35,637 nucleotides of DNA from a virus (lineage: Duplodnaviria; Caudoviricetes): the IMG/VR virus record IMGVR_UViG_3300016484_000704, positions 1 to 35,637 of that record. One strand, 5' to 3'. A model generated the notes under the pieces. It was not told where the DNA came from, ran no database searches, and was given only the letters and a program-made list of their open reading frames with translations. Both the position numbers and the translations under genes were made by a program. This document shows, piece by piece, positions 11,387 to 32,341 of the stretch. Each line of letters begins with the position of its first letter. The stretch's first letter is position 1.

Positions 11387-11898
11387 AAAACAAGATTCTC
11401 TTTGTGGCGTAGTTTATTTATTTTATTTTGGGGTCAACTTCCGTGTAGAAGTCAACAGGTTTACATGTCAAAAAGTTTAAACTATCTTTTCATGCCGCGA
11501 CATACTGTGCAGAAAAAGTAAATCGAAAAGTTTCTTTCACCGCGAGACTATTGCACTATTGCGCACCATTGCGCACCATCGCTTAATATTCACTATATGA
11601 ACTCGGGGGAGAAAGCAGCGCAGAAACATACTAGGCGAAAACGAAATTAGCGAAGAGACAAAGTGACGTAGTACGGAACTAAACTACTAATCTTAAAGCT
11701 GCAAACGAGACTATCTTTCTAATACGCGTATACGTGTACCCTAGGCCCTATCTCAGAAATAGTCTCGTTAACGGGTTCATGATTAGTTGATTATCTTTTA
11801 GCAAAAGTTTCAAGCAGTCAATAGTTTACTAGAAGAGAAACATATGCTATAGTTGACCTGTCAGAGACACGCTACGCACTACGCAAGTCGGGAGAGAG
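11387..11898. other. AT-rich non-coding region, candidate replication origin or control region
   Basis: Sharp GC drop; repeated AAAAGTTT and CGAGACTAT; inverted repeat 11704-11714/11759-11769. Confidence 0.5.
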
Positions 11899-15460: not shown

Positions 15461-15666
15461 GTTCTCCCGTTATAGTTGACGGGTACCCGAAAATAGGAGC
15501 TGAGCTCGCCGTGCAGTATTACCGTATTCTGGAAGTTGTTCGTCAGCAGGAGGAGGCTCGGAGTAGTTCTCCGCGTTTCCGCTTTTTCCGTCGCCGGCCC
15601 GCGCAGGACGCCACTGATTACGAGTGGTACGCCGCGCACCTGAGGCTGCATAACGCGCTTCGCTAA
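15457..15666 (+). CDS. Hypothetical protein
   Basis: GTGA-coupled; ends just before the first promoter repeat. Confidence 0.55.
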   Translation: MSSPVIVDGYPKIGAELAVQYYRILEVVRQQEEARSSSPRFRFFRRRPAQDATDYEWYAAHLRLHNALR

Positions 15667-17354: not shown

Positions 17355-17559
17355 GACAGCCGCGGATGCTCTTGAGGCGCAGCTTGAGCGTAGCGGTGTG
17401 AAGCTTTCCCGCACGGACGTGCTCGAGATGGCGTTGGTCACGTTGATGGCTGGCGATACTCATCTAGAGTCGACGTTGTCGCTTGAGCCGACGACTCGTC
17501 TTCTAAATGGTCTTCGCATCTCGGAGCCGAATGTGGTGGCTCCGGTGAGCGTCGACTAG
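17338..17559 (+). CDS. Hypothetical protein, possibly ribbon-helix-helix-like
   Basis: GGAG upstream; LSRTDVLEMAL. Confidence 0.5.
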   Translation: MKTRVETAADALEAQLERSGVKLSRTDVLEMALVTLMAGDTHLESTLSLEPTTRLLNGLRISEPNVVAPVSVD

Positions 17560-17633
17560 CCCGCTCCACCATACCTGATATAATAGTACCAACGCCGGCA
17601 CGGAGGAGCCGGAAACGACGAAAGGACACGGAA

Positions 17634-18086
17634 ATGAATTCAGCCACCGACGTGATCGGCAAGGCGGTCTACCTCGAGTTTCGCAAGGCCGCATGGACGG
17701 TTCAGATGATTCTGATGCCGGACGGCCACACTCCGATGGGCGCCTACGTCCCGCACACGCTCTATCGCCGGCAGATCAGTGCCGACGCTCCGCGCAAGTC
17801 GTGGAAGACCTCATCCGCGGTTGCCGAGCCCTGGCACGGTGTTCGCCCGCAGATCAGCGACGACTCGGCGCTTAGCTTCGGGCTCTCCCGCTTCGAGTTC
17901 ATGGAGGGCACGCTCGTCAACCTGTCGACCCGCGGCTGGAAGCTCTACAAGAAGCCGGTGATCGTTGAGGTGACTGCTCAGGACATGGACGATGTCCGCC
18001 AGGGCAAGACGCCGTACAAGGTCGTTGCCCGCATCACTCGAGTGCGTCGCGCGCTCGGCTTCGGCGAGGCTCTCTTCGCCTCCTGA
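17634..18086 (+). CDS. Hypothetical cassette protein
   Basis: Promoter at 17574 with ACGACGAAAGGAC leader; its stop is the TGA of the next repeat. Confidence 0.8.
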   Translation: MNSATDVIGKAVYLEFRKAAWTVQMILMPDGHTPMGAYVPHTLYRRQISADAPRKSWKTSSAVAEPWHGVRPQISDDSALSFGLSRFEFMEGTLVNLSTRGWKLYKKPVIVEVTAQDMDDVRQGKTPYKVVARITRVRRALGFGEALFAS

Positions 18087-18141
18087 TATAATAGTACTCG
18101 CACCACGCACCAGCCACAACGACGAAAAGGACGTGATCAAC

Positions 18142-19137
18142 ATGGCAATTCCCAGCGCAGTCCTCGAGGACCTTGTCGATGACCCGAGCGTTACGCCCCT
18201 CCGCGACATCATCGCGGCTGCAGGAGTGCAGTCCGCCAACCCTCACCTGGACGACATTCTCGATAGTATGGTCGAAACCCAGGGCCGCGCGACCAAGCGG
18301 CACGCGACCAAGAAGGCGCCTGTCGTGATCAATGCCGATGCCCTTACCGGCGACTCGACCTACGTTCGCCCGAACGGCGACGTCTACCACACCCGCAAGT
18401 GGGGCGAGCACGACGACGTCGAGGTTCTGCGCAAGGCCCGCGATGCGATGCAGTTCGTGCTGCTCTACGGCGCGCCTGGCTGTGGAAAGACCGCGCTGGT
18501 CGAGGCAGCGTTCGACGACGTGCTCACGCTGCTCGGCTCCGGTGACACCGAGGTCGCCGACCTGGTTGGTGGCTACGTGCAGACTCCGTCCGGCGGTTTC
18601 GTCTGGGAGGACGGCCCTCTGCTCAAGGCGGCGTCTGCCGGCAAGCCCTTCCTCATCGATGAGATCGGTCTCATCGACCCGAAGGTGCTGTCCATCGTCT
18701 ACGGACTCATGGACGGCCGCCGCGAGTACACCGTGACCGCCAACCCCGAGCGCGGCACGGTTCGCGCGGAGGACGGGTTCTACGTCATCGCCGCCACCAA
18801 TCCGAACGCTCCAGGCGTTCGACTGTCCGAGGCTCTGCTGTCTCGTTTCACGATCCAGGTCGAGATGACGACCGACTGGGGTCTCGCCAAGAAGCTTGGT
18901 GTCCCTTCACAGATCGTGACCGCGGCACAGAACCTGAGCAAGAAGCAGCAGAGCTCGGAGGTGAGCTGGGCTCCGCAGATGCGCGAGCTGCTCGCGTTCC
19001 GTGATCTGTCCGAGATGTTCGGCACGAAGTTCGCGATCGCGAACCTCTTGGCCGCTGCCCCCGAGATGGACCGCCCCGTCGTTGCGGACGTCTTCACGAG
19101 GGTCTTCGGCGACGAGTGCCGACCCGCGAAGATCTAG
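18142..19137 (+). CDS. MoxR/CbbQ/CobS-like AAA+ ATPase
   Basis: Walker A GAPGCGKT, DLVG, W.DGPL, Walker B FLIDE, ATNP sensor 1, ALLSRF arginine finger. Confidence 0.93.
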   Translation: MAIPSAVLEDLVDDPSVTPLRDIIAAAGVQSANPHLDDILDSMVETQGRATKRHATKKAPVVINADALTGDSTYVRPNGDVYHTRKWGEHDDVEVLRKARDAMQFVLLYGAPGCGKTALVEAAFDDVLTLLGSGDTEVADLVGGYVQTPSGGFVWEDGPLLKAASAGKPFLIDEIGLIDPKVLSIVYGLMDGRREYTVTANPERGTVRAEDGFYVIAATNPNAPGVRLSEALLSRFTIQVEMTTDWGLAKKLGVPSQIVTAAQNLSKKQQSSEVSWAPQMRELLAFRDLSEMFGTKFAIANLLAAAPEMDRPVVADVFTRVFGDECRPAKI

Positions 19138-19156
19138 CCTCCGGTATCTTCGCGCC

Positions 19157-19196
19157 GAGGGGCGTCGACCACCTGGCTGGTTGGTTGGCGCCCCTC
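19157..19196 (+). terminator. Stem-loop between the AAA gene and the next promoter
   Basis: GAGGGGCGTCGACCA/TGGTTGGCGCCCCTC. Confidence 0.55.
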
Positions 19197-19256
19197 ACAT
19201 GGCACCTGATATAATAGTACTCACGGACGGAAACACGACGACGAGAGGACACGAAC

Positions 19257-21119
19257 ATGGCGCACATCAAGCACACCGCCACTCGCGCGGAGGCAACGCC
19301 TTCCGAGTGGTTGCGCACTGGCGCCCAGCTCGGTGAGCTGGTGAATACCTGGGCAGGACGCAGCGACCTGGTCGCGTACGTCGGACCCGGCGCCGGTGGA
19401 CCTGCGCCCGCCTGCTACAACCCGAAGCTCGCCGAGGTCGAGGTCAACGTTGACGTCGCCTTTGGCAACGTCTCGCCCGAGTTCATCGGCGACCTGCGCG
19501 AGCGCGACACGCAGTTTGACTGGCCTCGCGCCGCTGGCGCCATCTTCCACGAGGCGCTGCACGCGCGCTACTCGCGCTGGAACCTCGACAACGCAATTGC
19601 CGAGCTTCCCAAGCGCGTCTACCAGGCGCTCACTCTTCTCGAGGAGTCCCGCATCGAAGCGTGGGGCGTTCGCGAGATCCCGAGCAATCGCTCGTTTCTG
19701 CGCGCCTGCGCGCTCGACATCGTTCTCGCCGACATTCGCGAGAACCCTGGCGCCGAGCTCGACACCTGGAACGCGGCGCACCTCGCCGGTTTGCTCCACG
19801 CTCGAGTCGACGCCGGCGTTCTCGATCGCGACGACGTTGACGAGGTCATCGCCATTGTCGACGAGCACCTGGGTGCCGAGCTCATGAAGGAGCTCCGCGG
19901 CATCTGGCGCACCTTCCAGTCGCACGCCAATCACTACAACGTCGAGTCGATGTACGGCCTTGCCTACCGCTGGGTCGAGCTTCTCGAGGAGCGCGCCAAG
20001 GAGAAGGGCGAGACCGGAACACCCGGCGGCGCGTCTGGTAAGTCCGGCGACCCGAGCGAGTTTGGTGAGCCTGGCGGCGGCGAAGGCTCCGGTGAGTCCG
20101 GCGAAGGTGATGGTGAAGGCTCTGGCATTAGCATGAGCGACATCCTCGACGCGCTCGAGGACATTCGCGACATGGTTGCGATTGCCGCGGCCGATGACGC
20201 TGCTGATCAGCAGATGGCAGAGGAGTGGGACCGCGAGGTCAAGGCGCGCAGCTCCGCGAGCACCGAGCGCCGTGAGCACGAGGCCGCCGCATCGAAGCTC
20301 TTCTCAAAGGGCACCGGTCCGTCCTCGACGACCAAGTCGGCGTCGCGGCTCGTTGCAACGCGCCAGCCCGCCGGCCCCGAGCGTGCGGCAGCAGTTCGAG
20401 TCGCGCAGATGCTCGACAAGGCGAAGTACCGTGAGCGCGACGAGGTCGAGATCCACTCGGTTCTTCCTCCTGGTCGACTGCGCACTCGCGCAATGGTGCA
20501 GGGTGCCGCGCTTCGGTCGAAGGGTATCCGCGCCGAGGTCGAGCCCTGGCGTCGCACGGCGCGCAAGCACACCGAGGACCCGACGCTCAACATTGGCGTC
20601 ATGGTCGACATCTCCGGCAGCATGAGCGCGGCGATGGAGCCGATGGCAGTCACGGCCTGGGTTATGTCCGAGGCGGCTCGTCGAATCCAGGCGCGCGCGG
20701 CGATGGTGTACTACGGTAGCGGAGTGTTCCCCACGCTCAAGCCCGGGCAGCATCTGTCCGAGGTGCACGTGTACTCCGCACCGGACGGCACGGAGCGTTT
20801 CGACGATGCCTTCAAGGCGCTGGACGGCGGCCTCAATCTGCTGCACGGTACCGGCGCGCGTCTGCTCGTCATTGTGAGTGACGGGTGCTACACGCCGGCT
20901 GAGCAGCGTAACGCTCGCCGCTGGGTGCAGCGTTGCGATCAGGCCGGCGTCGCGGTTCTGTGGCTGCCGTTCGACTCGGACTACTACGCCAAGGAGATCA
21001 TCGGCTCCGCGAGCGCGGCGATCATTCCGGGCTACCTCGATCCGGCCAAGGCCGCGACCGAGATCGGCACCGCGGCTGCGCGGCAGCTCACCAACGCCGG
21101 CGCGAGGCGCGCGGCGTAA
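19257..21119 (+). CDS. vWA-domain (CobT-like) partner of the AAA+ ATPase with an N-terminal HExxH domain
   Basis: FHEALH...LEESRIE; Gly/Glu/Ser linker; MIDAS DISGSM, GT and VSDG. Confidence 0.9.
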   Translation: MAHIKHTATRAEATPSEWLRTGAQLGELVNTWAGRSDLVAYVGPGAGGPAPACYNPKLAEVEVNVDVAFGNVSPEFIGDLRERDTQFDWPRAAGAIFHEALHARYSRWNLDNAIAELPKRVYQALTLLEESRIEAWGVREIPSNRSFLRACALDIVLADIRENPGAELDTWNAAHLAGLLHARVDAGVLDRDDVDEVIAIVDEHLGAELMKELRGIWRTFQSHANHYNVESMYGLAYRWVELLEERAKEKGETGTPGGASGKSGDPSEFGEPGGGEGSGESGEGDGEGSGISMSDILDALEDIRDMVAIAAADDAADQQMAEEWDREVKARSSASTERREHEAAASKLFSKGTGPSSTTKSASRLVATRQPAGPERAAAVRVAQMLDKAKYRERDEVEIHSVLPPGRLRTRAMVQGAALRSKGIRAEVEPWRRTARKHTEDPTLNIGVMVDISGSMSAAMEPMAVTAWVMSEAARRIQARAAMVYYGSGVFPTLKPGQHLSEVHVYSAPDGTERFDDAFKALDGGLNLLHGTGARLLVIVSDGCYTPAEQRNARRWVQRCDQAGVAVLWLPFDSDYYAKEIIGSASAAIIPGYLDPAKAATEIGTAAARQLTNAGARRAA

Positions 21120-21122
21120 GCT

Positions 21123-21182
21123 CCGGCCCGGAGAGGAGCGGTTGTTTCGTCCGTCCTTTCGTCCCGCTCCTCTCCGGGCCGG
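21123..21182 (+). terminator. Perfect 19-bp hairpin whose 22-nt loop is antisense to the cassette leader motif
   Basis: Arms 21123-21141 and 21164-21182; loop TTGTTTCGTCCGTCCTTTCGTC. Confidence 0.75.
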
Positions 21183-21226
21183 CCTTCCTGATATAATAGT
21201 TCCAACGACGGAAGGAAGGCATCAGC

Positions 21227-21367
21227 ATGGACATCAAGATCTCTCCGGAGCAGCAGAAGCTCAATGCTCAGTCGCACCGGCTCGGAAACGTCGACGACTG
21301 CCTTCGCTGCGTCGACTGCGAGGTTGCCGCATGGAACACGTGGCGCGAGCCGTGCCAAGCTCGATAG
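21227..21367 (+). CDS. 46-aa Cys/His protein
   Basis: Follows promoter 21187 and GAAGGAAGG; H...CLRCVDC...C. Confidence 0.65.
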   Translation: MDIKISPEQQKLNAQSHRLGNVDDCLRCVDCEVAAWNTWREPCQAR

Positions 21368-21419
21368 AGTCCGCCTGATATAATAGTACCAACACAACGA
21401 CGAACGGACGGAGAATCAA

Positions 21420-21713
21420 ATGTACGGAGTGAAGCCCGAGGACCCTCGAGTCACCGCCGCCTGCATGATCTGTGACGGCGAAGGCATCGTCGACGGTGGC
21501 GATCGCGTCAACCCGTTCACCAGCATGGCCGAGGCGTACATGACCAGCTGCCAGTGCACCTTCGATACCGAGTGGCAGGGCGTCCTGTGTGTGGCGATCG
21601 AGTGGGGCGCGGTCGACGAGCTCCGCGAGTTCGCCAAGGCCGCGGACTACGACATCGAGAAGACCCTCGACCTGTGGGATGCCTACGAGACCAAGTGCCT
21701 GCAGGGCGCCTGA
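21420..21713 (+). CDS. Hypothetical protein (CxxC...CxC)
   Basis: Follows promoter 21374; its stop is the TGA of repeat 21709. Confidence 0.8.
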   Translation: MYGVKPEDPRVTAACMICDGEGIVDGGDRVNPFTSMAEAYMTSCQCTFDTEWQGVLCVAIEWGAVDELREFAKAADYDIEKTLDLWDAYETKCLQGA

Positions 21714-21749
21714 TATAATAGTACTACCAACGACGAAAGGACACCAGCC

Positions 21750-21953
21750 ATGGCAATGACCAAAGACTCCGAGTACATGTACACCACCATCGAGCAGGCG
21801 ATGCGGGCGCTCCGTGACGCGGAGCATGACGTCGCCGCCGACTACGGCGAGGACATGGTGCAGGAAGGCTACAACGACCTGGTCGACGGCATCGCCTTCG
21901 ACTGCAGCCCGAGCGTGCGCAAGGAATTCCTGCGCCGGACGAGAGGCTTCTGA
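21750..21953 (+). CDS. Hypothetical protein
   Basis: Follows promoter 21709 and ACGACGAAAGGAC. Confidence 0.8.
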   Translation: MAMTKDSEYMYTTIEQAMRALRDAEHDVAADYGEDMVQEGYNDLVDGIAFDCSPSVRKEFLRRTRGF

Positions 21954-22326: not shown

Positions 22327-22401
22327 CCGGCGCGCCAAGAGCACGCGACCCGTCACTTCCCCCGGTGACATCGACTCGCTCTCTTGGCGCGCCGGTCTTT
22401 T
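22327..22401 (+). terminator. Long stem-loop with a T-tract
   Basis: CCGGCGCGCCAAGAG/CTCTTGGCGCGCCGG followed by TCTTTT; abuts promoter 22406. Confidence 0.7.
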
Positions 22402-23104: not shown

Positions 23105-23136
23105 GCCCCGGCGGAACTCCCCGCCGGGGCTCTTCC
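23105..23136 (+). terminator. GC-rich hairpin
   Basis: GCCCCGGCGG-AACTCC-CCGCCGGGGC followed by TCTT. Confidence 0.65.
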
Positions 23137-25959: not shown

Positions 25960-26000
25960 GTTAGGGCTAGGTGTCCCATTCGTGGGTGCCTAGCCCTAAC
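25960..26000 (+). terminator. Hairpin abutting promoter 26000
   Basis: GTTAGGGCTAGG/CCTAGCCCTAAC stem; loop ATTCGT. Confidence 0.65.
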
Positions 26001-26265: not shown

Positions 26266-26274
26266 CCTACGGGC

Positions 26275-26304
26275 GGGGCACGCGGGCGAAAGCCCGCGTG
26301 TCCC
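26275..26304 (+). terminator. GAAA-tetraloop hairpin
   Basis: GGGGCACGCGGGC-GAAA-GCCCGCGTGTCCC. Confidence 0.6.
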
Positions 26305-26359
26305 ATTCGTGGGTGCCTGATATAATAGTGCCAACGACGAAATGAAAGGGGCAGTCCGA

Positions 26360-31128: not shown

Positions 31129-31371
31129 ATGAACTCGAAGTGGTGCCTGCTGAAGGAGTCTGACGGGGCTCGCGGAGCCAACGGCAAGAAGAAGGTGTAC
31201 GAGATCGTGATCGACGGATCGATCGTGCGGACCTCGTGGGGAATGGCCGAGAAGACTCGGCGCCAGCACTCCTCGCAGTACTTCGCCACCGAGTCCGCGG
31301 CGCGGCAGTTCGCGCTCAACAAGCGCTACGAGAAGCTCGCCAAGGGCTACGAGCTCGCTTACGCGGTCTGA
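31129..31371 (+). CDS. Stand-alone WGR-domain protein
   Basis: K.YEI.I.G..V...WG.......F.T...A........EKL.KGY. Confidence 0.8.
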   Translation: MNSKWCLLKESDGARGANGKKKVYEIVIDGSIVRTSWGMAEKTRRQHSSQYFATESAARQFALNKRYEKLAKGYELAYAV

Positions 31372-31391
31372 GAAGGGAATGGAGCGCCTAC

Positions 31392-31538
31392 ATGACAACC
31401 ATCCGTGGATTCTACCACTGCCCGTCATGTAGGCGGCTCCATTCATTCTCTGGCGGCTTTCTGAGGGTGCATTGCCCGTGCGGGTTGGTCATCGACCAGC
31501 TCAAGGTCGCTCAAGGGTCAGTCGAGCGCCCATCCTGA
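31392..31538 (+). CDS. Small zinc-ribbon protein
   Basis: CPSC...CPCG; GGAG RBS; its stop is the TGA of repeat 31534. Confidence 0.6.
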   Translation: MTTIRGFYHCPSCRRLHSFSGGFLRVHCPCGLVIDQLKVAQGSVERPS

Positions 31539-32242: not shown

Positions 32243-32246
32243 GCTT

Positions 32247-32296
32247 CACGAGCACTGGCCCTCCCGGGTGACTACCCCTCGGGAGGGTTGCTCGTG
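32247..32296 (+). terminator. Extended stem-loop before promoter 32305
   Basis: CACGAGCA/TGCTCGTG enclosing CCCTCCCG/CGGGAGGG. Confidence 0.6.
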
Positions 32297-32341
32297 TACG
32301 GGCACCTGATATAATAGTACTACAACGACGACGAAAGGACG

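Follow-up and report, generated by a model that had tools for sequence, protein, structure and literature searches.

From about position 15,600 onward, the window (the whole stretch of phage DNA analysed, 35,637 nt) is a string of small + strand cassettes. The cassette motif GATATAATA, which from its consensus (TGnTATAAT) we take to be an extended -10 promoter element, is found in 24 exact copies between 15600 and 32350, with no copies on the minus strand of the window; downstream of it comes an A/C-rich leader whose Shine-Dalgarno sequence resembles GAAAGGA. Small CCGG-closed hairpins open several of the leaders (15980, 17577, 30848, 31066, 31942), and other long hairpins lie just ahead of promoters (22327-22395, 23105-23130, 25960-26000, 26266-26313, 31363-31457, 32245-32300); two of the latter (at about 25972 and 26299) have a 20-nt stretch in common.

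The cassette considered here carries a vWA gene with a hairpin immediately behind it. With the gene upstream, its features are:

18142..19137, + strand: AAA+ ATPase gene (AAA_5, MoxR/CobS-like), separately promoted, directly upstream of the vWA gene
19205..19217, + strand: predicted promoter for the vWA cassette, an extended -10 element (TGnTATAAT) among the 24 exact motif copies
19223..19235, + strand: own leader box 1, at the predicted mRNA 5' end; single occurrence in the window
19240..19250, + strand: own leader box 2, with the Shine-Dalgarno sequence; target of the 3' half of the loop
19257..21119, + strand: vWA gene (620 aa), with an N-terminal HExxH, a long helical linker and a C-terminal vWA/MIDAS domain
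21123..21141, + strand: 5' arm of the stem, beginning 3 nt past the vWA stop codon
21142..21163, + strand: 22-nt loop between the two arms
21164..21182, + strand: 3' arm of the stem, with no U-tract after it
21187..21199, + strand: promoter motif heading the following cassette, 5 nt past the stem

An AAA_5 ATPase adjoining a MIDAS-bearing vWA protein, the two genes are a MoxR AAA+/vWA chaperone pair. The second is identified as a probable vWA protein by its motifs and predicted fold: H98, E99 and H102 and the DxSxS motif are invariant, and a model of one homologue (L087) has the NorD vWA domain as its best match, while Pfam, NCBIfam and PHROGs yielded no match to the protein. A two-gene pair of an AAA_5 ATPase and a vWA protein with an N-terminal HExxH has been described in jumbo phages, and proposed as a virion-assembly chaperone (PMC7824862). 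The window pair has the same architecture but sits among small, separately promoted cassettes, and has an RNA element, of which the passages on the jumbo-phage pair make no mention (PMC7824862). The nearest named relative, at 54% identity, is the metagenome-assembled phage DSL-LC01, for which Actinomycetia are the predicted hosts (PMC10611076). A 50%-identical vWA gene with phage-like promoters (L091) is in a Ca. Limnocylindrus assembly; either the contig is phage DNA binned wrongly, or the gene points to a different host. In one relative (L013, about 1900-2500) the gap between the AAA and vWA genes is 737 nt, versus the usual ~120, which suggests an inserted element.

The stem is, as the earlier note on this DNA had it, a perfect one of 19 bp: 21123-21141 and 21164-21182 pair without mismatch, forming the longest perfect inverted repeat in the window with a loop of up to 60 nt. 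The predicted fold has an energy of -44.5 kcal/mol (z -8.3), and none of 200 shuffled sequences was as stable. The conserved loop on a covarying stem that the note had proposed as a check is found in close relatives: in three of these the loop is identical, and the stem has two compensatory pairs and one G-U, too few for significance. A cassette-motif scan of the window found no promoter motif inside the vWA gene ahead of the hairpin, and a promoter and terminator consensus scan of 19000-21500 found no site. Rfam searches returned sub-threshold matches only for the window from 15000 to 35637, and for 10 related loci one tRNA and nothing else at gathering threshold. A search of sequencing runs with 17500-21800 of the window listed no RNA dataset containing it. 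Inspection by eye also raised a hammerhead-like fold for the minus strand, which was discarded for want of a catalytic core motif ahead of it.

Loop complementarity to leaders within the window

The sequence GACGAAAGGAC has five + strand copies in the window (17617, 21732, 24470, 26028, 32330), and its sole minus-strand copy lies in the hairpin loop. An exact 11-nt complement is present in all five leaders to which the earlier note had matched the loop (those of genes 17634, 21750, 24486, 26044 and 32342); the 13-nt match it gave for the 32342 leader is real, and the pairing it saw with the vWA gene's own leader, including one G-U, amounts to 11 bp at 19240-19250. From base composition, the chance of finding such an 11-mer in the 12 positions of the loop is ~1.4e-6, for one hairpin considered alone.

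The loop can be divided into two halves. The 3' half (21153-21163) is complementary to own box 2 and to the five other cassette leaders; its pairing with box 2 contains the one G-U in the window and is perfect in two relatives (L011 and L013). The 5' half (21143-21154), which the earlier note had overlooked, pairs with own box 1 with one bulge. Among 24 promoter-defined leaders box 1 is the best target of this 5' half (rank 1), and it takes first place too in L011 (19 leaders) and L013 (12 leaders). For the 3' half, the five other leaders equal or surpass the own leader in binding, and they outrank it in single best helix within the window, and the 32342 leader ranks first by whole-loop duplex energy; only the own leader is at the top for both halves. 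Own-specificity in this window is confined to the 5' half of the loop. The window is among the loci with many matching leaders because the common motif of the phage is also that of its vWA leader, and since half of the loop fits five cassette leaders, some action in trans could still occur.

On the strength of such matches, the earlier note had proposed a 3'-UTR-derived antisense RNA shutting off many early cassette mRNAs together. The exact 11-nt complement in five other leaders, reaching 13 nt in that of 32342, argues for this, as do a match of 12-13 nt to the 32342 leader kept in three close relatives and 17 copies of a 9-nt target in DSL-LC01. The comparisons among relatives given below make it improbable.

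Covariation of loop and leader among related phages

Viral contigs were scanned twice, and the best 80 of 191 and best 80 of 242 relatives taken. After duplicates, missing ends and uncalled starts were dropped, 78 distinct loci are listed, with the window and DSL-LC01 added; identity of the vWA protein across them is about 45-95%. A promoter-like hexamer precedes the vWA gene in 61 of the 78 listed loci, and 67 have the stem, with a median of 13 bp, a median loop of 22 nt and a median start 10 nt after the stop codon's first base. A U-tract follows the hairpin in only 6 of the 78; considering this together with the loop length and the blank terminator scan, classification as a canonical intrinsic terminator was rejected. 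With U-tracts so rare, a 3' end of the mRNA at the hairpin is only presumed, and transcripts running on past it could carry other cassette leaders as well.

Internal mismatches in the 58 distinct stems comprise 45 G-U and 3 A-C, an excess indicating that the structure is one of + strand RNA. The earlier note's second suggestion, a decoy for a leader-binding factor, is disfavoured on this point, since it needs the minus strand as RNA. Between clades the stem sequence is not conserved, and the loop changes along with the gene's own leader; separate well-supported branches carry distinct loop/leader pairs: ACCTTTCTTGT / ACAAGAAAGGT in L087, TCGTCCTTTTC / GAAAAGGACGA in L085, TTCCTCTC / GAGAGGAA in L068, CCTGTCTC / GAGACAGG in L186, and GTTTACTTGTCCT / AGGACAAGTAAAC in DSL-LC01. 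In a loop-loop form, CTTCCGAAC / GTTCGGAAG (L084) stands against CTTCCAA / TTGGAAG (L189).

A perfect loop-leader match of at least 8 nt is found in 59 of the 78 listed loci, versus 19% with swapped and 4.5% with shuffled sequences, so that the pairing surpasses both kinds of control, the shuffled one being that which the original proposal demanded; the matching segment is unpaired in 58 of the 59. Accessibility-corrected pairing energy for 66 non-redundant loci is -9.2 kcal/mol with the own leader and -5.0 with swapped leaders, a gap reached by none of 100,000 permutations. It persists when one random member is drawn per cluster at 80, 70 or 62% identity (50, 39 and 19 clusters), none of the 3000 permutations reaching it in any of 30 draws; 9 of 12 loci added afterwards fit the own-leader pattern. 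Most match cores (56 of 68) overlap leader positions -16 to -5, the Shine-Dalgarno region. Counting differently, an 8-mer against the own -20 to -4 region is present in the 85-nt tail of 52 of the 78 listed loci, where 0.35 would be expected; over the whole 1.8-kb coding region, only 6 of the 78 have one. Two sites are found in 36 of the 78, versus 23% of swapped combinations.

The loop-leader helix itself is less informative as to strand, with 4 G-U versus 5 A-C, too even to indicate one. Nearest-neighbour comparison of this helix counted 31 breaks, mostly at helix ends, to only 6 compensatory changes and 8 wobble changes; the count is biased, the longer core being its reference. The pairing is absent from the minimum-energy fold of the whole mRNA, a nested model that cannot represent pairing into a hairpin loop.

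Formally, a leader box and the loop are inverted repeats around the gene, and the even wobble count on their helix would suit a function in DNA, a minus-strand decoy, or a plain terminator with an accidental loop. These are extremely improbable. The G-U bias of the stems and the placing of the match in unpaired RNA positions speak against them; the AAA gene is upstream on the same strand in 71 of the 78 listed loci, with no inverted state seen; and chance is excluded by the swap permutations, the cluster resampling and the 8-mer count in tails.

Two variants of the arrangement were noted in passing. In one (L041, L045, L046, L050, L051, L053, L059, L062, L075, L085), an anti-Shine-Dalgarno segment is joined by a GTGTC segment that complements a GACAC box at the 5' end, and the segments are so ordered that both pairings can form together. 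In the other, the vWA leader opens with a GGAAG-loop hairpin (L056, L063, L069, L073, L076, L084, L088, L090, L189) whose loop complements a CTTCC loop nested in the 3' element; the flanks covary, and the two loops are predicted to form a kissing pair.

The match does not extend to every homologue. For those from bacterial assemblies, mostly ending in short-loop hairpins, own and swapped leaders scored alike in the 39 of 51 loci that allowed scoring (-2.0 vs -2.0, p 0.50). In the records of six isolate phages whose vWA homologues are distant (Pumpernickel, Cece, Big4, Phendrix, GMA2 and Sixama), nothing matches the gene's own ribosome-binding region, and so no cultured model was found; Cece has a 7-nt match 50 nt upstream, before a promoter-like site. 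In the Microbacterium phages Pumpernickel, Cece and Big4 the vWA homologue ends in a hairpin with a shared TGYCCCG loop motif, and two of these homologues look leaderless by eye. The coordinates of these hairpins are:

7972-8020 of L010: TGYCCCG-loop hairpin, Microbacterium phage
3196-3245 of L243: TGYCCCG-loop hairpin, Microbacterium phage
3202-3250 of L244: TGYCCCG-loop hairpin, Microbacterium phage

Within the lineage, the own-leader match is missing from four loci (L032, L033, L035, L181) and weak in three (L063, L074, L083). Two more (L205, L210) carry the anti-Shine-Dalgarno loop on a second hairpin, 70-110 nt past the vWA stop, and were scored as misses because this lies outside the 85-nt scoring window.

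Own leader, other leaders and the AAA gene

A swap between genomes cannot separate a gene's own leader from the common leader of its genome, and further tests were therefore done within genomes, with neighbouring gene starts taken from a simple ORF and Shine-Dalgarno caller, errors included. The own leader is the best of ~23 local leaders at 27 of 65 loci, against 2.9 expected. Of 1392 other genes, 513 passed a fold filter for a structured tail, and their own leader is best in 16 of the 513, against 21.8 expected. An extension of the self-match to all cassettes was accordingly rejected: no own-leader match was found at the family level beyond the AAA and vWA genes. In DSL-LC01, of which about 116 of 129 kb were examined, the own leader is first of 122, with a unique 13-nt match, and the 17 copies of the 9-nt target are sub-matches to this.

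These comparisons bear directly on the shut-off of many cassettes. The loop follows its own leader where that leader departs from the common motif; over 68 loci, a median of 10% of the other local leaders match it at 8 nt or longer, and in 14 loci none does. Another local leader has a longer perfect match at 15 of the 68, with ties at 21. The 32342 homologue, the sole candidate followed across genomes, was rejected as a conserved trans target, its leader having a match of at least 9 nt in 4 of 13 genomes (swap p 0.067); in 11 of the same 13, the own leader has a match of at least 8 nt. What stands of the earlier proposal is a 3'-end loop able to pair with a Shine-Dalgarno leader; global shut-off as its main function is not supported, because the loop, over the family as a whole, varies with the leader of its own gene and not with the phage-wide motif.

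The adjacent AAA gene has a tail of its own, with a corresponding box in its leader:

18109..18116, + strand: C/A-rich box of the AAA leader, with complementarity to the loop of the AAA 3' hairpin
19157..19196, + strand: AAA 3' hairpin, loop segment 19174-19181 complementary to 18109-18116

The two tails do not appear to cross-react. The vWA tail scores -9.0 with its own leader and -3.4 with the AAA leader, preferring its own at 68 of 71 loci and the AAA leader at only 3, which further weakens the case for many targets; the AAA tail scores -6.0 with its own leader and -3.0 with that of the vWA gene, preferring its own at 58 of 71.

The AAA tails take two forms. In that of the window, a U/G-rich loop faces a C/A-rich box upstream of the Shine-Dalgarno sequence, and many relatives have TGGGTG / CACCCA equivalents of this match. 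In the second, an anti-own-Shine-Dalgarno segment lies directly behind the stop codon, 2-20 nt away, in 31 of 69 AAA genes (other genes, 22 of 851), and in 26 of these 31 the stop codon closes a mini-hairpin displaying it (other genes, 206 of 851); L058, L068, L074, L086, L087, L188 and L198 are examples. Stop and partner covary: among 27 distinct ends, from related sequences, there are 13 TAG/CTA and 10 TAA/TTA pairs, no cross combinations, and 4 without a partner.

A ribosome at such a stop would have to open the mini-hairpin, and this is the basis for supposing that the pairing keeps stop and start in contact and that each finishing ribosome melts the element and frees the Shine-Dalgarno sequence for another round, so that the number of ribosomes per message is fixed and the message is not switched off. 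The position of the AAA segments, their closure by the stop codon and the stop-partner covariation all favour such gating by termination. It looks quite unlikely all the same, as the vWA matching segment starts a median of 29 nt from the stop codon, the AAA gene of the window lacks the stop-closed form, and the closed-loop literature found is almost entirely eukaryotic. By its footprint, a terminating ribosome does not reach 29 nt from the stop codon.

Possible mechanism and known systems

The best explanation, and a reasonably probable one, is that the 3' loop pairs back onto its own leader and silences the completed mRNA. In a finished vWA message, the loop of the 3' hairpin would capture the ribosome-binding leader in vivo and within the same molecule, occluding the Shine-Dalgarno sequence and blocking new ribosome loading; the pairing would probably also accelerate decay. 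Given this occlusion, initiation would be mostly limited to nascent transcripts: ribosomes could load freely only while the 1.9-kb vWA gene was still under transcription, and each message would give a limited burst of the vWA/peptidase subunit. It may be speculated that this keeps the vWA subunit below its hexameric AAA+ partner, or limits a harmful activity.

A repressive direction is proposed because it follows icaR (PMC3868564), aapA3 (PMC6733600) and a Bacillus subtilis screen of distal anti-Shine-Dalgarno sequences (PMC12697547). In this screen such sequences blocked translation and sped decay, with an effect that drops with distance (44% beyond 500 nt; PMC12697547); at the vWA locus, leader and hairpin are 1.9 kb apart. 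In Staphylococcus aureus icaR, a 3'-UTR segment complements the Shine-Dalgarno sequence of its own mRNA, blocks ribosome loading and promotes decay by RNase III (PMC3868564). The phage hairpin likewise has a 3' segment complementary to its own Shine-Dalgarno sequence, and at the family level the match appears, as in icaR, to be specific for the own mRNA. The icaR motif is 7 nt long and ~260 nt into a long UTR (PMC3868564), whereas the phage match is of 8-15 nt, displayed in the loop of a hairpin no more than about 10 nt from the stop codon, and often has a second site. Further, the icaR motif is missing from S. epidermidis icaR (PMC7821165), while covariation appears to keep the phage match across dozens of lineages and on two adjacent genes of separate specificities.

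The type I toxin mRNAs hok and aapA have a 3' anti-Shine-Dalgarno segment that keeps the full-length message silent (PMC6733600). Both mRNAs are short, encode toxins, have an antisense antitoxin and become active when their 3' end is trimmed (PMC6733600), unlike the phage genes of 1.0 and 1.9 kb, for which no antitoxin or metastable hairpin of the nascent chain was identified. Assignment to the type I toxins was rejected, the product being a 620-aa HExxH/vWA protein and not a small toxin ORF.

In hbs of B. subtilis, about 14 nt of pairing between the mRNA ends protects against RNase Y (PMC7821165). The phage element resembles it in that, judging by complementarity, two ends of one mRNA could pair, and several clades have a second target at the extreme 5' end of the leader; the tail might then shield the leader from nucleases and stabilise the message. 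This is very improbable: 56 of the 68 match cores cover the Shine-Dalgarno region, and pairing there promoted decay in both tested cases (PMC3868564, PMC12697547).

The covariation would be explained equally well by pairing between copies of the same gene's message, or by a released fragment. In Vibrio cholerae, the autoregulatory sRNAs OppZ and CarZ are released from 3' ends by RNase E (PMC7821165). Like them, the phage hairpin has 3'-end sequence complementary to the initiation region of its own transcript. OppZ and CarZ depend on Hfq. A hairpin released in this manner could accumulate and repress messages newly made from its own gene, affecting as well the cassettes that share the leader motif, and the same own-leader covariation would be predicted; the stem is very stable, and at 29 of 68 loci three or more other leaders have matches of at least 8 nt. 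Such feedback in trans is nonetheless rather unlikely, given that an ectopic icaR 3'-UTR left the chromosomal copy unchanged (PMC3868564), and that the AAA anti-Shine-Dalgarno segment, right after the stop codon in a mini-hairpin of 3-7 bp, would make a poor free small RNA.

A bolder extension of self-pairing, put forward tentatively and with little confidence, is a closed-loop mRNA made by RNA only: AAA+ and vWA messages would each clasp their own start with an orthogonal 3' loop, termination at a stop-closed end would unlock the next initiation, and end-to-end pairing would set ribosome number and subunit ratio.

The principle of pairing between 5' and 3' mRNA ends is already known, with few long-range interactions of this kind recorded for bacterial mRNAs (PMC12697547). 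A search of the literature outside most subscription papers found no report of a phage-borne, loop-displayed, widely covarying example on two adjacent genes. Evolution has here produced dozens of compensatory pairs spanning 1-2 kb, on two neighbouring genes without cross-reaction; they are a panel for asking whether the ends of bacterial mRNAs communicate in cis, suit questions of transcription-limited translation and termination-gated initiation, and are a possible source of portable self-limiting expression parts.

Three other regions of the window were noted. Between 15674 and 15980, a promoter is followed by ~300 nt with several hairpins, no clear gene and no Rfam match, possibly a non-coding RNA; L011 has an extra promoter in the equivalent region. 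An AT-rich imperfect inverted repeat at 11680-11793, intergenic and at a local GC minimum, is possibly an origin or genome-end signal. From 246 to 2117, seven short genes (families D10 and D18) share a near-identical 33-nt start and an internal repeat, and are a tandem paralogue array.
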